Program-made: the position numbers and the translations under genes
Notes under the pieces: generated by a model
Databases searched by the model: none
What the model saw: the letters and a program-made list of their open reading frames with translations, nothing else
Told to the model about the DNA's origin: nothing
Origin: a virus
Taxonomy: Duplodnaviria > Caudoviricetes
IMG/VR virus record: IMGVR_UViG_3300011437_000007
Location: 1-43,407 of that record
Reading direction: 5' to 3' (one strand)
DNA length: 43,407 nucleotides
Part shown: one piece after another, positions 14,461 to 27,773 of the stretch
Numbering within the stretch: the first letter of the stretch is position 1
Layout of the letters: the number at the start of each line of letters is the position of its first letter

Positions 14461-14724
14461 CTACTTCCAAATCACGCCAGCGCCTTCACAACTACGGCAC
14501 CGTTCTGGCGTGAACAGATTCCCTGCCGTGGTGAAATAAATCTCACTGTAGAAGCCGTGAGGCACCTTCCCGCGCCCGCTACATACCGGGCAGGTATACG
14601 GTTGTGGTTCCGGCCCAACCGTCACTGTGAACGACGAATGTCGAGCACACCCGCCCGTTAATTTCTGACACTCAGGACAACCATCACTTAACATCTCGCG
14701 CCTCCCGTCCCCCCCCCTACTCAC
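14461..14724 (-). CDS. DnaJ-type CxxCxGxG zinc-finger small protein
   Basis: CPVCSGRG and CRSCEGAG motifs. Confidence 0.55.
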   Translation of the reverse strand: MSRGGDGRREMLSDGCPECQKLTGGCARHSSFTVTVGPEPQPYTCPVCSGRGKVPHGFYSEIYFTTAGNLFTPERCRSCEGAGVIWK

Positions 14725-15382
14725 CAGTGCAGGTAATCATGCGATCAAGTAAGTCGAAGGCTGACGCTTGCAGGCTGACAACAGTGGGTTGGACTTTCTG
14801 ATTCGCAGCGGCCCACGCAGCGTCCCTCGCAGCGGCCCACGCAGCGGCCCACGCAGCGGCCCACGCAGCGGCCCACGCAGCGGCCCCCGCAGCGGCCCAC
14901 GCAGCGGCCCACGCAGCGTCCCTCGCAGCGGCCCACGCAGCGGCCCACGCAGCGTCCGCGTCTTTCCGTGCGCCTTCTAGTGAGGGTTGTGACGCCTGCG
15001 CCACGGCCGTCGAGAGAATCGGTGGCAACGCGCGTAACGTCGTGGCCTGCACGGTGAGTCCGGCCAGATCAAGCCATGCAGGCGTATACACGCGCACCAG
15101 CCAGTCCGTCACCAACCACGCGCGCTGTTCGTCGGCCTTCGCATTCCCTGCCGTGTCCAGGACGCGCGGCAGATACGGCTTGAGTTTCTGCCGACCCGCA
15201 TCGTCTAGGTCGTCTTGCCATCGACGTAAAAAGGCCGACAGCACTGGTGACACACACGCCGGGGTGTCGCTCCACGGCTCTCCAGCCATAAAGCTGGCCC
15301 ATTCCATAATGCAACCACCGTGTTCCGGCCCACTATGAGAGCCGCGCTGAAGAACCAACGCGTCTAAATCAAGCGTTCTCAT
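14717..15382 (-). CDS. Phage protein with (WAAA/RDAA)n tetrapeptide repeats
   Basis: N-terminal 'GSH..GCIME..AGEPWSD.P.CVSPVL' domain followed by 12 tetrapeptide repeats. Confidence 0.75.
   Translation of the reverse strand: MRTLDLDALVLQRGSHSGPEHGGCIMEWASFMAGEPWSDTPACVSPVLSAFLRRWQDDLDDAGRQKLKPYLPRVLDTAGNAKADEQRAWLVTDWLVRVYTPAWLDLAGLTVQATTLRALPPILSTAVAQASQPSLEGARKDADAAWAAAWAAARDAAWAAAWAAAGAAAWAAAWAAAWAAAWAAARDAAWAAANQKVQPTVVSLQASAFDLLDRMITCTGE
14804..14947. repeat. 12 x 12-bp tandem repeat (CGCAGCGGCCCA and variants)
   Basis: Directly visible; encodes the WAAA repeats. Confidence 0.95.
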
Positions 15383-15398
15383 GGCACGCCTTCGCTTT

Positions 15399-15920
15399 CT
15401 AGCTGCGATATAGCCGCCGCATGCGTTCCCGCTGACAGGCACGACAGACGCGCGCACCGCTACGCTTTACGTGTAGGTTGGTTCCAGAATAGTCGTGGCC
15501 GGATGGGCACTGTGTGATCGCGCGATGGTAGTCATCAATCCGAAGCGTGTGCAGACTACGCGCGACATTTTCCCCGCGCGTGACTGCTTCAAGATGTGAT
15601 GGGTTGACGCACGAACGATGCGCGCAGGCTGATCCGCCGCCGCACTCAGCGTCTCCGTTGTGACATGTATGATCCAAAACCATGCCAGATGGCACGCGGC
15701 CTCGAAAGAGTTCGTAGGCCACGATATGGGCGGCCATGCTCCGCCGTGATGCCCGGAACGAACCGTAACCTTGTGTTCGTCCACCTGTCCAGCGCCAGCA
15801 CGCATCTAGGGCACCGTCCTCAATCTTCACCAAGAACCGCTCGATGTCGCCGCGAGTCAGCGTGACGCCACACCACAGCGTTACGCTGTCTAACTTCGCT
15901 AACCGTTCCGCCATCACCAT
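15399..15920 (-). CDS. HNH endonuclease
   Basis: CWRWTG..GYG..AHIVAYE..LDHTC..CVNPSHLEAVT..EN; C-terminal CPSGH..CRAC Zn module. Confidence 0.9.
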   Translation of the reverse strand: MVMAERLAKLDSVTLWCGVTLTRGDIERFLVKIEDGALDACWRWTGGRTQGYGSFRASRRSMAAHIVAYELFRGRVPSGMVLDHTCHNGDAECGGGSACAHRSCVNPSHLEAVTRGENVARSLHTLRIDDYHRAITQCPSGHDYSGTNLHVKRSGARVCRACQRERMRRLYRS

Positions 15921-15985
15921 TCACGCCTCCCTACCTGCTTGGCTCGCGCCTCCCGATCCCCCCACGCGCCCACCCTGTGCCCTAA

Positions 15986-16258
15986 TCACCGCTGGACTTG
16001 TTCTCGTCCATTCACCACGGCATGCGTGCGCTCCACGGGACGTAACTGCTTCAGCTCGGCGGCCGTGAAAAACTCCTCGAGCCGCCCCACCCAGACCGGC
16101 GCCGGGTCCATGTGTGCCGTCGTCGCGCGGAGTTGCCACTTCGTGCGGTACCGCTGCCCCGCTGGACACCGGCAGGCCAGCACCACATAGGGATCGCCCG
16201 GTTCGTCCAAGCCGACGAAATAAAGCCCCGTCTGCCGACAGATCTCACAGCGGTTCAT
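15986..16258 (-). CDS. Stand-alone Zn finger resembling the N-terminal domain of DnaC/IstB-type helicase loaders
   Basis: CEICRQTG......ACRC..G; no AAA+ domain follows. Overlaps the initiator-like gene. Confidence 0.5.
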   Translation of the reverse strand: MNRCEICRQTGLYFVGLDEPGDPYVVLACRCPAGQRYRTKWQLRATTAHMDPAPVWVGRLEEFFTAAELKQLRPVERTHAVVNGREQVQR

Positions 16259-16535
16259 GGCTCGGGACCGTGTTCCGCTGGCCGACTTTCCGCGCCGGCT
16301 CCGGTAACACCTGAATCCACCGTTCTTCTTCCAACCATTTCTTCAGCATGGGAATCAGCGCGACGTTCTGCCACTGCTCACTCCGCTTGTGCTGTTCCAA
16401 GGCGTCCCTGAGCACCGTGAAGCCCGCTTTGTTGAGCGCCCGCAGAAACAGGGCCGTCACAAAGTAGCCCCGTTGACGGCGTGCGGCTGGATAGGCGTCC
16501 ACAAATTGCTCAAAGAGTTCGTCGGTATGTGGCAT
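16245..16535 (-). CDS. Replication initiator/replisome organiser C-terminal domain only
   Basis: FEQFVDAYP..R.G..A..F..KRSEQW....IP...WL...RW pattern. ATG at 16535 follows AAGGA; alternative GTG start at 16598. Confidence 0.7.
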   Translation of the reverse strand: MPHTDELFEQFVDAYPAARRQRGYFVTALFLRALNKAGFTVLRDALEQHKRSEQWQNVALIPMLKKWLEEERWIQVLPEPARKVGQRNTVPSHEPL

Positions 16536-16539
16536 TCCT

Positions 16540-16876
16540 TGCCCCGTGCTTTCAACTGCGTTTTGGCAATAATCGGATTTGTCTTTTCCCCTGATCACTT
16601 ATCGCAGTGAACGAGAAAAACACCGTCCTCAGAGCCTCGCCGTATATTCCGCGCTGGCATCGCACATGACGTGCGCGGTCCGTCAGATCAGGTCGGGGCT
16701 GGAGACAAATCCGTAAAAGAGAACCAGACCCCTTTCGGGGCGACCCCTCTGTGCTTGGCGCGCTTGCTGGTACTAGTGGCGCTCTCTCACATGCGGCGGC
16801 CAGTGATGGAACGTTAGGCCCCGGCTTGGTGCGCTCTTCGCCGCTCGGCTGCGTCGCGCACTCGACGCGAAACTGT
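16540..16876 (-). ncRNA. Candidate structured ncRNA or structured origin
   Basis: Perfect 11-bp long-range helix 16574-16584/16703-16713, extended by 16590-16596/16686-16692. Also a CCCC-GAAA-GGGG hairpin and CGCAC/GTGCG and GCGTCG/CGACGC hairpins. No credible ORF. Confidence 0.55.
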
Positions 16877-16879
16877 TAT

Positions 16880-17062
16880 TTATCGGTACCGGTCGAAATC
16901 GTCTTGTTCTGCACGGTATTGGGCTTCTTCGCGCTCCTGGCGATACGCGTTTCGGAGTTCGCGTTGACACTCTTGTTTCCCGCAGGCGTCAGGCTCTCCG
17001 TGGTTGTCGTAGTCGCCAAGGTCTTCGCCGCAGTAGAAGCAATGCTGTGGTCGGACGGCCAT
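16880..17062 (-). CDS. Small Cys-containing hypothetical protein
   Basis: CFYC..C...C; GGAAGGAG RBS. Confidence 0.6.
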   Translation of the reverse strand: MAVRPQHCFYCGEDLGDYDNHGEPDACGKQECQRELRNAYRQEREEAQYRAEQDDFDRYR

Positions 17063-17114
17063 CGTCGTCTCCTTCCAAAATGCGCGCGGAGGTAGCGCTC
17101 CGAAATACTCATCG

Positions 17115-17342
17115 TCATCGGCGCGGTCTCCATTCGCCGTCTACGCGATCGCGTTCTTCGTCCCAATCCTCACGACTCGAGGGATAGGATTCACCGATGA
17201 CCGACAGGCGGCCACCACACGGACAGCGTTCGCCATTGACGGTTTGATCGTGGTGATACTCCCGCTCTTGTCCACACGTGCCACACCGGGCCACCTGTCG
17301 AATTTGATAGGGCGCTGGACGCCGGTAGTCAGTCATACACAC
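17115..17342 (-). CDS. Small Zn-ribbon hypothetical protein
   Basis: CGTC..CPCGG. Confidence 0.55.
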   Translation of the reverse strand: MCMTDYRRPAPYQIRQVARCGTCGQEREYHHDQTVNGERCPCGGRLSVIGESYPSSREDWDEERDRVDGEWRPRR

Positions 17343-17633
17343 TCGCGGTCTGGAGTTGGATTACACTTGGCAGAAGTCGGTGCCGCACAGCGATCAGGCT
17401 GTGGGGAATCGATTAGGGGCGCGGCGAGACTCCTACTCTCCGCGTTCCGACCTAATCCTACCACTTTCGCCATTCCCGTCATAGTGAACTTTCGCCTACG
17501 CCGCCGAGTCCATCTCGAGTGGCCGATCGTCGCCGTCTGGTCCTGGTGCAGATGTCTTCTCTGGTTCGGGATCGGTCGGGCTGGGACTGTCGAGCTCGAC
17601 GGCGCCCAAATGCTGGTCTGACATGGGTTCCTC

Positions 17634-18224
17634 CTACTTGATGCGTTCGTACGTGTCATCGTGCCGTGGGAGATCGCCCTTCCAGCGATGCCCGTGCACA
17701 ATCGAGAAGATCATGGACGTGCTAACACCAAACTCAGTTGCTAAGTGGTTCTGTTTAGCGCCTTTAGACCAACGTGCACGGATAGTAATCACGTTTTCCG
17801 AGGTGAGCTTCGACAATGGATGTCGTTCACCAGAGATACCGCGCCGCTTAGTAACCATGTCCTGGGTGTTGTCTTTTGGGGTGCCGAGAAACAGATGCTC
17901 CGGATTTACGCACCGCCTGACATCGCATTGGTGACAAATACACATGCCTTTGGGAACTGGGCCATGTTGTGTCTCCCAGATATAGCGATGCGCGCCGATG
18001 CTGTTGCCATTCAACCAGAACGAGCCGTACCCGGCCCTTTGGGTTCCGGTCCACATCCAGCAACTACCAGTCTTTTCCACCTGAGCCCAGAATCTATCCT
18101 GCGCGGTACGCCTTGATGCTTGCCTGCACTCTGGAGAGCAATGCCGCGTCTTACCCTCTCGCACCTTAGAGGGACTGCGCTTAAATGGATTCCCACAGTT
18201 AAGGCAGTGATACATAACTGGCAT
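17634..18224 (-). CDS. HNH endonuclease with N-terminal Zn finger and C-terminal HTH
   Basis: CLNC..CSPEC; RFWAQVEK..CWMW..AHR..CHQCDVRRCVNPEHLFLGTPKDNTQD; SKLT..V..IR. Confidence 0.92.
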   Translation of the reverse strand: MPVMYHCLNCGNPFKRSPSKVREGKTRHCSPECRQASRRTAQDRFWAQVEKTGSCWMWTGTQRAGYGSFWLNGNSIGAHRYIWETQHGPVPKGMCICHQCDVRRCVNPEHLFLGTPKDNTQDMVTKRRGISGERHPLSKLTSENVITIRARWSKGAKQNHLATEFGVSTSMIFSIVHGHRWKGDLPRHDDTYERIK

Positions 18225-18677: not shown

Positions 18678-18869
18678 TCACGATGCCTCTCGCTTCGTGT
18701 GGATCAACGTGTCCACCATCGGCTCCGGGATCCGGAACACATCCACGAGGACCATCCGGGGCGTGAACTGGTGCCGCTCGATCCAGTACGCCACCGAGCG
18801 TACCGTCGCGGGTTGAATCGGCACACCAGCCCGCTTCAGGAGACTCATGGTTTCGTCGAGTGGCGTCAC
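18678..18869 (-). CDS. Hypothetical protein
   Basis: 63-aa ORF coupled to the exonuclease stop. Confidence 0.5.
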   Translation of the reverse strand: MTPLDETMSLLKRAGVPIQPATVRSVAYWIERHQFTPRMVLVDVFRIPEPMVDTLIHTKREAS

Positions 18870-19546
18870 AGCACCAGCTCCGGCTGTTCGCTGAGAATGC
18901 CCAGCCGCCGCGCCAGCTTGGCCGTGGTGAGGATGTCGGATTCGCAGTGACGTCCCACCGCATCCCAGTTCCCTTCGGCCACCAGCGCGCCCACGTCCTT
19001 GCCTTGGGTCGGATCGTCTACCTCGATCCCGAACCGGCGTGCATAGAACCTCAGCCCGTGTGTCTTGATCGCCCCGTCGAAGTTGAGAATGGTCATGAGG
19101 TCATCCACGTCGGGATGGCGGTACTTGCCCATCTGGATCGGCCTGGTCGGGATGCCCAGATACTGCGAGCGCCGAATGATCACCGGTAAATCAAAAGCGA
19201 TAACGTTGAACCCAATCAGCCGCGGATAGGGATACGGCCCGATCGCGTTCCAGAACGACTCCAGGACCACGCGCTCCTCGGCTTCGGTCTCCGCCAACAT
19301 CACCACCCAGTCGTGATCGTCGGTGTACCGTCCGAGCGCCACGATGCGGCAGAGGTCGGGGTCGAGCGCACACTTGCCGAGCTGCGATTCCGTTTCTTTC
19401 TCGACGTATTTCTTGATCGCATCTTCCTTGACGTAATTGGATGGCGCGGCCACAGGCTCGAGATAGTCCTTCGCCCCGTCAATGGCATAGGTCTCGACGT
19501 CAAAGACCATCGCACGCCGATAACTGTTCTCTCCGTTCAAGCCCAT
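18866..19546 (-). CDS. DnaQ/PolB-like 3'-5' exonuclease
   Basis: ExoI FDVET, ExoII GFNVIAFDLP, ExoIII HCESD. Confidence 0.88.
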   Translation of the reverse strand: MGLNGENSYRRAMVFDVETYAIDGAKDYLEPVAAPSNYVKEDAIKKYVEKETESQLGKCALDPDLCRIVALGRYTDDHDWVVMLAETEAEERVVLESFWNAIGPYPYPRLIGFNVIAFDLPVIIRRSQYLGIPTRPIQMGKYRHPDVDDLMTILNFDGAIKTHGLRFYARRFGIEVDDPTQGKDVGALVAEGNWDAVGRHCESDILTTAKLARRLGILSEQPELVL

Positions 19547-19554
19547 GCGTCACC

Positions 19555-19965
19555 TCAAAACGGAATTTCGTCGTCGCTGAGTTCGGCGTCGTGATCGATA
19601 TCAGCTGGTGGCGGCGGCGGGATGGGCTTAGTCATGCGCGACATGCCAGGCTTCACCGCGGCTTTGACGCGGATGCAATCCACCGTATCGCCGGCAAACT
19701 GTGTCTCGGTCGCGAACAGCCGAATCTTGTGACCGTCCCATTCCTCGGTGATCGCGCTGCCGGTGAGCTCCGTGATCTTGTTCGCGTTCGTCTTGTTGAG
19801 GACGAGCCCCTTCTCTTTGTGGTGGAAGTACAGCACCGCTTTCATTTCCTTCTTCTGGCCGACCGGCTCGAACTCCACACGGCTCATGGTGACGACCGGC
19901 TCCGCCCCTTGGAGGTCGGAGGCTTTCAGGTATTTGCTGGGGAACGCGTCATTGATGTTGGGCAT
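19555..19965 (-). CDS. Single-stranded DNA-binding protein
   Basis: PSKYLKASDL..LVLNKTN family pattern; acidic SSB tail DDEIPF. Confidence 0.8.
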   Translation of the reverse strand: MPNINDAFPSKYLKASDLQGAEPVVTMSRVEFEPVGQKKEMKAVLYFHHKEKGLVLNKTNANKITELTGSAITEEWDGHKIRLFATETQFAGDTVDCIRVKAAVKPGMSRMTKPIPPPPPADIDHDAELSDDEIPF

Positions 19966-22086: not shown

Positions 22087-22433
22087 GTACGCCTCTTTTC
22101 CTCAATCGTGACCGACCGCTTGACGTCGAAGTACTCACCGCAGACTTCCAACGCCAACAGGGGCAACAGTTCCCGCCAGACCGCTGGAGGCCAGTCCGCC
22201 ACCATCTCGTGAAACCACAACTTGTGATCGGTGAGGCCGCTGATCTTCTTGGAGGTTTGCGCCTTGTCGTCACCCAAGGCTTTCGACTGAATCCCGCTGC
22301 GGGCAATGGCGAGCTTGACGAGATTCGCGGCTGTGACAATCGCGTGGTCAGTGAGCTTCGCCTTTGCCGGTTGGAGTTTGCCAACCGTGTTGAGACGACT
22401 TAGGGCGGTTGACCGCGCTATAGTGCTGCTCAT
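22083..22433 (-). CDS. CII-position regulatory protein (putative)
   Basis: Follows cro (after the HNH insert); HTH-like 'SKALGDDKAQTSKKISG'. Confidence 0.5.
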   Translation of the reverse strand: MSSTIARSTALSRLNTVGKLQPAKAKLTDHAIVTAANLVKLAIARSGIQSKALGDDKAQTSKKISGLTDHKLWFHEMVADWPPAVWRELLPLLALEVCGEYFDVKRSVTIEEKRRT

Positions 22434-22924
22434 GCCACCCGGTTCCTCGTTCTGGCGTGCCGGCGACGATGCGCAGCAGACAGTGCCGCGCGATGGTCAT
22501 CCGAGAACTTGCGTCCCTTCTGTGTGTGCGCGTGAGGCGAGCGCCGCCCCTTTTTATCCATGTCCCGGATGTTGTCGAGTTGAGTGCCGAGGAAGAGATG
22601 AGCCGGATTTACACAGGGCGGATTGTCGCAACGATGCAGGACCGACAGCCCCTGCGGAATCGGCCCGCGAGCGATCTCCCATGCGCCGCGATGCGCGAGC
22701 TTCGTTTGCTGCGCGGCCGTATCCCAGTAGACGCCGTAGCCGCGATTCTTGGCGAGCGCTCCAGACCACAGCCAACACGACGCAGGCGAAAGCTCGGAAT
22801 TGGTGTTTCGTCGGAAGAACTCGGACGCGGATTCCGTCTGTTCTATGCTAATTTCATACGGCGACCGTGGCTGTAAGTCATTGTTTTGTAAGGAGATATA
22901 ACATTCCTTATTAGACTCAGTCAT
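22430..22924 (-). CDS. HNH endonuclease with NUMOD3-like tail
   Basis: CWLWSG..GYG..AHRGAW..VLHRCDNPPCVNPAHLFLGTQLDNIRD; KGRKFSDDHRAALSAA. Confidence 0.88.
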   Translation of the reverse strand: MTESNKECYISLQNNDLQPRSPYEISIEQTESASEFFRRNTNSELSPASCWLWSGALAKNRGYGVYWDTAAQQTKLAHRGAWEIARGPIPQGLSVLHRCDNPPCVNPAHLFLGTQLDNIRDMDKKGRRSPHAHTQKGRKFSDDHRAALSAAHRRRHARTRNRVA

Positions 22925-23156
22925 GCACATCACCTGCAAGTGGCTGTGCCGGAGAGGCATTGTGGACGAGCGACTCAATCGGGATGTTCGCTAAGTCGGC
23001 GATGCGGAGCGCGAGATCGAGGGGGGGATTCTGTATCCCATTGGCAATGCGGGAGATATAAGACTGAGAGACTCCAATCCGTCGCGCAAAGGCGGTCTGG
23101 CTCTCGCCGCTTTTCTCCAGATACTGTGCCAAATTGGGATATATTCGGCGTTTCAT
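22917..23156 (-). CDS. Cro-like XRE HTH regulator
   Basis: SQTAFARRIGVSQSYISRIANG..PPLDLALRIA; first gene of the early operon, divergent from the repressor. Confidence 0.88.
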   Translation of the reverse strand: MKRRIYPNLAQYLEKSGESQTAFARRIGVSQSYISRIANGIQNPPLDLALRIADLANIPIESLVHNASPAQPLAGDVHD

Positions 23157-27046: not shown

Positions 27047-27294
27047 CACCCCACCAGCGGAAAGGCGTACGTCGCGTCGTCCACTTCTTCGAACACCGCC
27101 CGTGTCCCGTCGTCCTTTAGCGTCTCCCACGCGCCCGCGGTACCTGCCGGCCGTGTCTCCACGGTACCGCTCGGTTGTACCGACATGACCGTGTCCGCTC
27201 CTTTCGGGTACCGGCAGGTGAAGTACCCCGCCCGTGACGGGTGCGGAATCAGATCGCGGCGATGGAGGACAAAGGTGGCTTTCTGCTCGCTCAT
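27046..27294 (-). CDS. Small protein with a fascin/beta-trefoil-like repeat
   Basis: 'MSVQPSGTVETRP....GAWET' motif; TGATG-coupled to the GH gene. Confidence 0.5.
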   Translation of the reverse strand: MSEQKATFVLHRRDLIPHPSRAGYFTCRYPKGADTVMSVQPSGTVETRPAGTAGAWETLKDDGTRAVFEEVDDATYAFPLVG

Positions 27295-27773
27295 GTCAGG
27301 AGTCCTTTCAAATGACCCAGGGCCGTCCGTTGCCGGTGCCAGATCGCCTGTTGTGTCAGGCCTTCCTGATCCGCAAGGGTCTGGTGTGGCGTCTCATCCC
27401 AGAAGCGTGCCCGCAGCGTGGCTTGATCCACCGGGCCTAATTGCGCGATCGCCGCGTGCAATTCGCCATACAACACTTGCCGATCCGCTGGCACGTCAGC
27501 GGCGGCGTGGGGCTCCTGGAGCGTCACGTCGAAGTCCATGTCCCGCACCACTATTCCGTTCCGCCGTTGCCGCTTGAACGGGCCGCAGGTGCGGTAGCAG
27601 TCCACCATCGCCCCATGCAACCGGAGCTGCGTGACATCCGGCGTCGAGAGGGCCGCCACCCACGCGGCCTGCTCGAGGTCGCAGAGGTCCACGCCATACC
27701 GCGATCGGCGGTAGCCCATCAGGCGCCGCGCGATCCGGCGAATGTGCGAGCCGATGAGCACGTGATCGGTCAT
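27291..27773 (-). CDS. Sigma70-family sigma factor (region 2 plus region 4)
   Basis: IARR..DLEQAAW..HGAMVD..R; AIAQL..DQATL..RF....T...LA...GLT...I......AL..LK. Confidence 0.75.
   Translation of the reverse strand: MTDHVLIGSHIRRIARRLMGYRRSRYGVDLCDLEQAAWVAALSTPDVTQLRLHGAMVDCYRTCGPFKRQRRNGIVVRDMDFDVTLQEPHAAADVPADRQVLYGELHAAIAQLGPVDQATLRARFWDETPHQTLADQEGLTQQAIWHRQRTALGHLKGLLT

Follow-up and report, generated by a model that had tools for sequence, protein, structure and literature searches.

A conserved pseudoknotted element in place of the initiator N-terminus of a tailed phage: a candidate folded replication origin

How does a tailed phage start replication when only the C-terminal end of an initiator is encoded where the whole protein would be expected? 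The window, by which we mean the whole 43,407-bp stretch analysed here, is a complete phage record with direct terminal repeats, and its minus strand holds every gene annotated in it. PHROGs, Pfam and NCBIfam name terminase, capsid and tail genes, three HNH nucleases, RusA, a methylase, a 3'-5' exonuclease and a sigma-like protein. A first-pass annotation had stated that no polymerase, primase or helicase is recognisable in this genome, and indeed none was found among 67 ORFs searched against PHROGs and Pfam (out of 334 mechanical ORFs with a minimum length of 50 aa) or among 29 ORFs searched against NCBIfam. One further context gene, at 19555..19962, matches PHROG 21613, a group of unknown function, and its product is probably a single-strand-binding protein (SSB).

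Two small proteins lie in the initiator and loader positions. The 96-aa protein had been read as an initiator C-terminal domain (CTD) and nothing more, and it matches just the C-terminal part of the PHROG profiles (E 4e-5 and 1e-4). Its family comprises 53 matches within the searched size range of 52-168 aa, namely the protein itself and 52 relatives, mostly of about 100 aa. The CTD is approximately 50% identical to the C-termini of proteins of 200-380 aa, four of which were scanned and are PHROG replication-initiation or primosomal proteins. Its structural model (pLDDT 81) bears a weak fold likeness to SPP1 G39P (Z 5.2, rmsd 2.7, 62 aligned) and to DnaD domains (Z 4.1, rmsd 3.1, 63 aligned; Z 3.7, rmsd 2.9, 60 aligned), scores that lie within the range of common helical bundles; Foldseek gave no match, no solved structure was found by sequence, and the Atlas look-alike PF09524 (Phg_2220_C), at 0.93, is a lead only. 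The 90-aa Zn-finger protein was found to carry no AAA+ domain, as had been claimed, and has no family match in PHROGs or Pfam; it has only two relatives, is 26% identical to the C-terminal portion of a loader-slot protein encoded next after the CTD of locus L129, and gave only leads under 0.9 in the Atlas. Nor could we find what an initiator normally brings to its origin: repeat families in 15900-17200 never exceed two copies, in line with the reported lack of iterons, and the missing DNA-binding N-terminal half is equally real, the gene being 96 aa long and the upstream gap showing no initiator similarity beyond chance.

The same annotation had described extensive pairing in this gap. All of its arms are present, namely 16574-16584 with 16703-16713, 16590-16596 with 16686-16692, two nested stems and two hairpins. 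The nested stems (CCGCGC 16649-16654 with GCGCGG 16673-16678; CGCAC 16661-16665 with GTGCG 16671-16675) share 16673-16675, and hence cannot both form in full. The arms are real, but within the window alone their pairing does not exceed chance: taken in full, the 344-nt gap is no more stable than shuffled versions of itself (z -0.2/+0.2), only a hand-picked 148-nt core stands out (z -3.0/-3.5), and about 1.4 inverted repeats of 11 bp with such a span are expected per 43-kb strand (40 shuffles). That a structured feature exists is visible only by comparison with relatives, which does support the pairing. The list of arms was correct as far as it went, but it lacked the pseudoknot and the predicted triple helix described below.

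Searches with the CTD yielded loci L001-L104, from which full-length initiators and loci with less than 250 nt upstream were set aside; the 71 loci left represent 41 distinct upstream regions, window included. Relatives of the CTD carry an element of 120-170 nt, here called type A, in the position of the gap. Homologues of the protein at 16245-16535 had been named as the place to look for covariation, and it was found there. In an alignment of 34 elements, built from sequence alone and with the window left out, a 40-pair structure is paired in 86.4% of 1318 cells, against 41-55% in slid controls, and 34 of the 40 pairs show double-sided change, a number reached by none of 500 shuffles. Along the strand the order is P1 5', a pyrimidine linker, P2 5', P1 3', the P3 hairpin, the P4 hairpin and P2 3'; P1 and P2 therefore cross, and two crossing helices with compensatory changes are the arrangement of an H-type pseudoknot. 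P1 is paired in 88% and 71% of cells, with double-sided change in seven of nine pairs, and P2 in 97.8%, with such change in nine of 11. P3 (92% paired) carries a conserved 8-nt loop and contains 27 G-T cells versus a single A-C cell, while P4 (80% and 77%) mostly ends in an A/T palindrome. It should be noted that the automatic pseudoknot finder gives scores to chance helices in full-length loci as well and served only to generate leads, and that a second helix finder misread L125 and partly L116. On this comparative evidence the pseudoknot of the type A element is well supported.

The window itself belongs to this family. Its P2 departs from the consensus at five pairs, each of them compensated, and model R3, built without the window, places its top match in the genome at 16567-16738 on the sense strand (18.9 bits, E 5.5e-4; runner-up 8.9 bits). 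Model R1 includes the window, and its match there holds by construction. No Rfam family accounts for the region: there was no match in the window, none at E<=5 in 16400-17100 and none in 18 homologous loci. The conserved part extends to 16559-16856, over which contig X6, one of the near relatives from soil runs (X contigs), has 25 other letters and four gaps (approximately 92% identity) with divergence on both flanks; the downstream loose end of X6 is the start of a CTD relative, P0021, that is 64% identical. Could the pairing nevertheless be due to chance, or the gap be a decayed or frameshifted initiator N-terminus? The near-zero folding z of the whole gap and the expected 11-bp repeat would be compatible with this, as would a stop-free sense frame of about 108 codons and the failure of a sequence-only profile, built without the window, to find the window's element. 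Against it stand the covariation, the match of the model that had not seen the window, and the conservation in X6 between diverged flanks. The gap had been said to hold no credible ORF; its open frame is hit by four single-base indels in near relatives, and 110 long relatives of the initiator gave five scattered tblastn matches at E<0.05, the number expected by chance. Chance-level matches and indels together argue that the gap is not a broken N-terminus; we consider chance or decay very improbable and, as far as sequence comparison can tell, largely refuted. Judged by its relatives, the block is a conserved, covarying structured element of the sense strand.

Table 1. Features of the element and its surroundings, in window coordinates.
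Feature	Position	Strand	Basis or remark
Conserved non-coding block, whole module	16559..16856	-	soil-run contigs; X3-X5, X7-X9 cover parts
Pseudoknot-triplex core element, type A (triplex predicted)	16567..16738	-	model R3 top match
P1 5' strand, pseudoknot helix	16724..16732	-	inner 4 bp 16724-16727, bulge 16728, outer 4 bp 16729-16732
P1 3' strand	16695..16702	-	partner of P1 5' strand
Pyrimidine linker L1, predicted third strand on P2	16714..16723	-	parallel match to P2 purine strand
P2 5' strand, long closing helix	16703..16713	-	perfect 11-bp complement of 16574-16584
P2 3' purine strand, predicted central triplex strand	16574..16584	-	complement of 16703-16713
Alternative-helix arm	16686..16692	-	pairs with 16590-16596; present in part of family
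P3 hairpin domain	16649..16678	-	longer in window than in family
P4 hairpin: T-tract/purine-tract stem	16586..16620	-	apical hairpin 16595-16610
C4-GAAA-G4 hairpin	16729..16740	-	pair-keeping change in X9
16-bp quasi-palindrome, candidate protein-binding site	16762..16777	.	2 mismatches to relatives' motif
Small hairpin at 5' edge	16851..16868	.	stem 16851-16856/16863-16868; terminator-like on + strand
Standalone initiator C-terminal domain, 96 aa, all-helical	16245..16535	-	ATG 16535; PHROG 9474/270
90-aa CxxC..CxC Zn-finger protein	15986..16258	-	overlaps CTD stop
3'-5' exonuclease	18866..19546	-	PF10108, E 1.7e-12; context gene
Probable single-strand-binding protein, acidic C-terminal tail	19555..19962	-	sequence; context gene

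Near relatives inform on the finer parts of the element (Table 1). All listed changes of X5 and X6 fall outside P1, P2 and the 7-bp helix 16686-16692/16590-16596, which has no listed change in X5, X6 or X9 and whose arrangement is repeated in L006, L024, L025 and L034. X9 alters both 16731 and 16738 and keeps the pair, and the loop changes of the GAAA hairpin in X8 and X9 keep GNRA, each observation coming from a single low-depth contig; since X9 breaks an outer P1 pair and compensates the hairpin, the outer half of P1 and the GAAA hairpin appear to be alternatives in the window. In 10 of 40 relatives the motif of the quasi-palindrome lies ahead of the CTD start, with 10 occurrences in 13 kb versus six in 168 kb. 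The sequence of the hairpin at the 5' edge is not kept in near relatives. An intrinsic terminator at P4 was considered and rejected, the T-tract preceding the stem on both strands, and several known RNA classes were dropped on the basis of their general features: HDV-like and hammerhead ribozymes for wrong topology, a retron for lack of a reverse transcriptase, and a frameshift signal for lack of a conserved slippery site or frame.

The pyrimidine linker appears to do more than connect P1 to P2. It matches the purine strand of P2 in parallel, following the rule T with A, C with G and G with T, in 123 of 135 cells taken from fixed alignment columns. The purine strand leaves the consensus in 15 cells, and in 11 of these the linker changes with it (row-shuffle mean 3.0; 0/5000), a test that is inflated by relatedness, kin sharing variants. 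The four misses are L025, which is misaligned, L129, L072 and L089, and the linkers of the last two fit if the register is shifted by three. The switch from T.A-T to G.T-A requires three to four changes on a tree built without those columns, with full reversion in L039, and antiparallel pairing fails in the switch rows (1-2 of 4). Six of seven linker positions fit in the window; the exception faces a C-G inversion and is the position changed in X5 and X6, and two linker changes in near relatives (16719 and 16715) avoid canonical triads. The key column pair, 27-152, ranks 74 of 8515 by corrected mutual information, and the predicted triplex is short, at about four to eight triads. A parallel match between loop 1 and stem 2 that covaries is what a major-groove triple helix would leave behind, and we regard the predicted triple helix of the linker on P2 as probable.

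If the element stands in for the missing half of the initiator, its distribution should reflect that of initiator types. Among the 41 non-redundant regions upstream of a standalone CTD, 28 hold type A, seven a purine mirror repeat, four a larger type C element and two, L007 and L028, non-coding modules of other kinds with an intervening HNH-type gene; the short CTD of L059 has no module within 738 nt upstream. Model R1 scores above 60 bits in 40 loci and finds nothing at E<0.01 in 23 full-length-initiator loci, which are stretches of only 1-10 kb. Conversely, iteron-like repeats of three or more copies occur in 11 of 16 full-length loci versus three of 41 standalone loci. A scan blind to proteins, based on a small upstream hairpin common to types A and C, returned 13 loci, two of them by chance. 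The 11 real matches lie before a standalone CTD (seven), before a 149-aa protein with DnaB (one), in loci without a CTD (two) or at a cut-off end (one), and none is followed by a full-length initiator, a size class (200 aa or longer) to which 110 CTD relatives belong. L107, L121 and L127 were discarded as chance pattern matches. Three type A elements found by the scan (62-82 bits) precede CTDs of other subfamilies; the CTDs of L120, L125 and L131 were confirmed by PHROGs, that of L129 by motif and tree only. The module type swaps at least six times on the CTD tree, which has few columns and many open forks. Searches of cultured phages and plasmids gave no useful match, and two GTDB matches are full-length initiators. 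Taken as a whole, these distributions support the view that the element occupies the place of the initiator N-terminal half and the iterons in several independent phage lineages.

The first-pass annotation had treated element, CTD and Zn finger as one three-part module, and in this respect it is not supported. L108, L111, L122 and L128 carry a module without a CTD, type A in the case of L108 and L111; with the Zn finger restricted to two relatives, the three parts are clearly not obligatory. In L116 the element lies beside an unrelated small protein and DnaB. One relative, 18.8 kb long and 96% complete, combines a type C module with the lack of a CTD, and its 16 ORFs of 100 aa or more gave no match to an initiator, primase or helicase. 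The existence of modules in loci lacking the CTD led us to regard the non-coding module as the constant part and the proteins as optional. It could also be taken to mean that the module is a trans-acting phage ncRNA, or a recombination or packaging signal, with no link to initiation, and that the CTD is a leftover inhibitor of the host helicase, in keeping with the best replication-related fold match of the CTD, SPP1 G39P, being a loader/inhibitor, and with 19-kb relatives encoding an annealing-type protein and a resolvase. We find this quite improbable, as each examined record has one module and the types are mutually exclusive (five records were tested and lack type A, and four of them carry type C or its variant), and as the initiator-slot position is fixed in lineages with different CTDs.

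The purine mirror repeats found in the same slot may hold a clue to what the module does. Perfect mirror arms of 24-27 nt are present in six of the 41 relatives, and H-DNA is the intramolecular triplex formed by such repeats; the upstream region of the window has no homopurine mirror repeat of 10 nt or more. L134 has the same mirror core before a TA run and four DnaA-box matches, and a mirror repeat is present in L133 too. Scanning for the 17-nt mirror core gave 107 distinct loci, 55 of them with arms of 10 nt or more (seed 6), and by eye approximately 11 lie in linkers of initiator genes just before the CTD. Triplex-prone sequence may accordingly be a widespread component of origins, and we infer that in type A a single strand solves the task of the mirror repeats.

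We consider it probable that the block 16559-16856 has an origin role of some kind. How it would act is a more tentative matter, and the account we favour, with considerable reserve, is that the folded sense DNA strand, a pseudoknot with a triple helix as its clamp, is itself a replication origin that takes over from the iterons and from the part of the initiator that binds DNA. Early transcription through the region would supercoil it or displace the sense DNA strand, the AT-rich P4 hairpin would nucleate the fold-back, P2 would close the element, and P1 and the linker would then lock the sense strand, leaving the partner strand open. On that open strand the CTD, the Zn finger and the SSB-like protein may help load the host helicase; for the CTD and the Zn finger such putative roles are plausible. 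GC skew does not switch at the element, and the only DnaA box of the window is distant from it, with no enrichment of such boxes near the modules of relatives.

That the folded strand is the sense strand is indicated by the excess of G-T over A-C cells in P3. With RNA parameters this strand is the more stable one in 29 of 35 elements (mean -5.2 kcal/mol), and with DNA parameters in only 23 of 35 (-0.9). Whether DNA or RNA is folded bears directly on the main competing account, in which the same origin role is exerted by a transcript whose pseudoknot-triplex protects or positions an RNA 3' end, which would form an R-loop and prime synthesis in the manner of ColE1 RNA II or the T4 origins. All evidence from the slot applies to it equally, and the strong G-T bias of P3, the sense preference under RNA parameters, the maintained GNRA loop and the purine tracts that follow many elements would suit an RNA, as would the resemblance of the multi-helical type C element to ARRPOF (PMC12990946). 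However, PMC4836648 does not place G.U-A among 11 stable RNA triples and gives C and U, and not G, as stable opposite U-A, so that repeated G.T-A triads would be disfavoured in RNA. G.T-A is described as typically among the most stable non-canonical DNA triads, and in the assay of that study itself it was unremarkable (PMC6698731). Furthermore, the mirror-repeat substitute needs duplex DNA, mirror repeats on an all-purine sense strand allow no Watson-Crick folding as RNA, the P4 apex is mostly an A/T palindrome and not an RNA tetraloop, and no sigma-70 promoter match is present in 15800-17400. Collectively, we lean slightly to DNA and regard the RNA primer as somewhat unlikely. The initial proposal, that a structured RNA or single-stranded DNA origin replaces the origin-binding domain, thus gains a covarying structure in the initiator slot, with RNA as one candidate for the folded molecule and some evidence pointing to a folded DNA strand.

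The position of the element would also fit a cis-regulatory RNA of the early operon, acting as antiterminator, processing signal or translational control, with the origin located elsewhere. The put sites of HK022 are antiterminators and the IncI rep pseudoknots exert translational control. The element is always sense-oriented within its operon, often directly after a stop codon, its alternative helices suggest two states, and its conserved 8-nt loop could bind a protein. On the other hand, P2 lies anywhere between 19 and 159 nt from the CTD start and leaves the ribosome site uncovered, the downstream genes differ among loci, and nothing would lead such a regulator to shun full-length initiators or to be exchanged for mirror repeats. 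We therefore judge cis-regulation unlikely, and return to the folded DNA strand as our working model. Extending it to the family, we propose, with a little more hesitation still, that these tailed phages have dispensed with protein recognition of the origin, and that interchangeable self-folding modules (the ssDNA pseudoknot-triplex, the H-DNA mirror repeat and the 260-nt multi-helix element) melt the origin, the initiator being reduced to its helicase-handling end or lost altogether.

How does this arrangement relate to known systems? The ColE1 RNA II primer and the T4 R-loop origins are transcription-dependent, have no origin-binding initiator and rely on folded or hybridised nucleic acid; unlike these, the phage retains an initiator fragment, shows no antisense partner and has no Rfam match, and RNA is only a candidate identity for its element. 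The phiX174 primosome assembly site, the G4 origin and plasmid single-strand origins are simple hairpins on ssDNA intermediates, and like them a folded single strand would here recruit replication proteins, although with a predicted tertiary fold, in a dsDNA phage and in the slot of the primary initiator. ARRPOF, GEBRO and PAGEV are Rfam families. These plasmid motifs are described as structured, 223-349 nt long, tied to replication regions and possibly acting as ssDNA (PMC5737381), and for ARRPOF four pseudoknots and a region that replicates without a rep gene have been reported (PMC12990946). In contrast, our element is found in tailed phages beside a truncated initiator and is a compact pseudoknot with a predicted triple helix; neither Rfam, including these three families and RNA I/RNA II, nor plasmids gave a match to it. 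With the lambdoid O/P and SPP1 G38P/G39P modules it shares the gene slot, and the CTD is homologous to the C-termini of PHROG initiation and primosomal proteins. O engages the host helicase together with a loader (PMC11087808). Unlike either module, the window has no N-terminal DNA-binding half, iterons, AAA+ or full P-like loader, and a folded non-coding module is present instead. Pseudoknot triple helices have been described in telomerase and SAM-II (PMC4836648), and as in those and in H-DNA the predicted pyrimidine third strand runs parallel to a purine strand; what sets the element apart from both is that a single strand supplies all three predicted strands, with a pseudoknot as the clamp. 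A literature search that mostly did not extend to subscription papers found no description of the element or of triplex origins in phages, and the motif was not matched in six supplement files of PMC10690425, a collection of ten thousand candidate viral structured RNAs. Since no family membership holds and no counterpart was found, we count the architecture as new.

An origin of roughly 300 bp that needs little or no phage protein could, given a known host, yield a small replicon. Should the fold be DNA, it would be a rare natural ssDNA with RNA-like tertiary structure; should it be RNA, it would represent a new triple-helix RNA class tied to replication, and as a primer it would be a variant of the ColE1/T4 kind. 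Apart from this, the element bears on the long-open question of a selected function for triplex DNA in prokaryotes, for which natural three-way compensatory variants offer controls. If our reading is true, these phages would have a third way of starting replication in tailed dsDNA phages, beside iteron-binding initiators and plain R-loop origins.

The non-coding slot before the gene for the standalone initiator C-terminal domain (CTD), where the initiator N-terminal half and iterons are missing, is also occupied by a second covarying element of about 260 nt, type C, in which 25 of the 58 predicted pairs change on both sides across eight sequences. Additional long-range complementarities were recognized in it by eye, and comparison of type C with Rfam gave no match. 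Two more non-coding modules take up the same place, one in locus L007 and one in L026/L028, with an HNH-type gene between module and CTD. The L007 module starts with the small upstream hairpin shared by type C and the type A element (the pseudoknot with predicted triple helix carried by the window), and its stem is altered yet still paired. At L116:3141-5053, a type A element precedes genes for a 149-aa protein of no assigned class and for DnaB, with a helicase gene upstream; the 149-aa product is possibly a further initiator C-terminal domain.

Some standalone CTDs are instead preceded by perfect purine mirror repeats with a short spacer at the centre. Their core is widespread in phages, often with adjoining TA runs, and in one case adjoins four DnaA-box matches; inspection by eye placed it within initiator-gene linkers as well.

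Around the type A element of the window, positions 16735-16830, upstream of the pseudoknot, are among the best-kept parts across near relatives, yet this stretch folds no better than its shuffles. A 16-bp quasi-palindrome, a candidate protein-binding site, recurs in 10 of 40 relatives at a distance of 29-70 nt from the start of the CTD gene, on its upstream side; it occurs in both orientations, alongside type A as well as mirror modules.

Locations of the elements and of other genes and repeats in the window (L, loci compared with the window)
Feature	Location	Remark
Type C element	L130:2997-3287; also L132, L122, L128, L131, L029, L031, L032, L037, L123	
Non-coding module	L007, about 640-440 nt before CTD	
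Non-coding module	L026/L028, about 600-320 nt before CTD	
Purine mirror repeat or its core	L011, L019, L055, L077, L082, L093, L137; L134; L138-L258	
Quasi-palindrome, 16 bp	window 16762-16777	candidate protein-binding site
12-bp tandem repeat	window 14808-14935	inside 246-aa ORF 14717-15457
Three HNH endonuclease genes	window 15399-15920, 17634-18224, 22430-22978	related to each other
Sigma-70 region 4/ECF-like protein	window 27291-27773	

Two of the three HNH endonuclease genes flank the replication slot, and the 12-bp tandem repeat codes for the AAWAAA-type repeats of its ORF. Among the loci compared, L259 (handle G005), L260 (G001) and many 19-kb contigs represent tailed phages with very small genomes, about 19 kb long, which carry a fused protease-capsid gene and hardly any replication genes.
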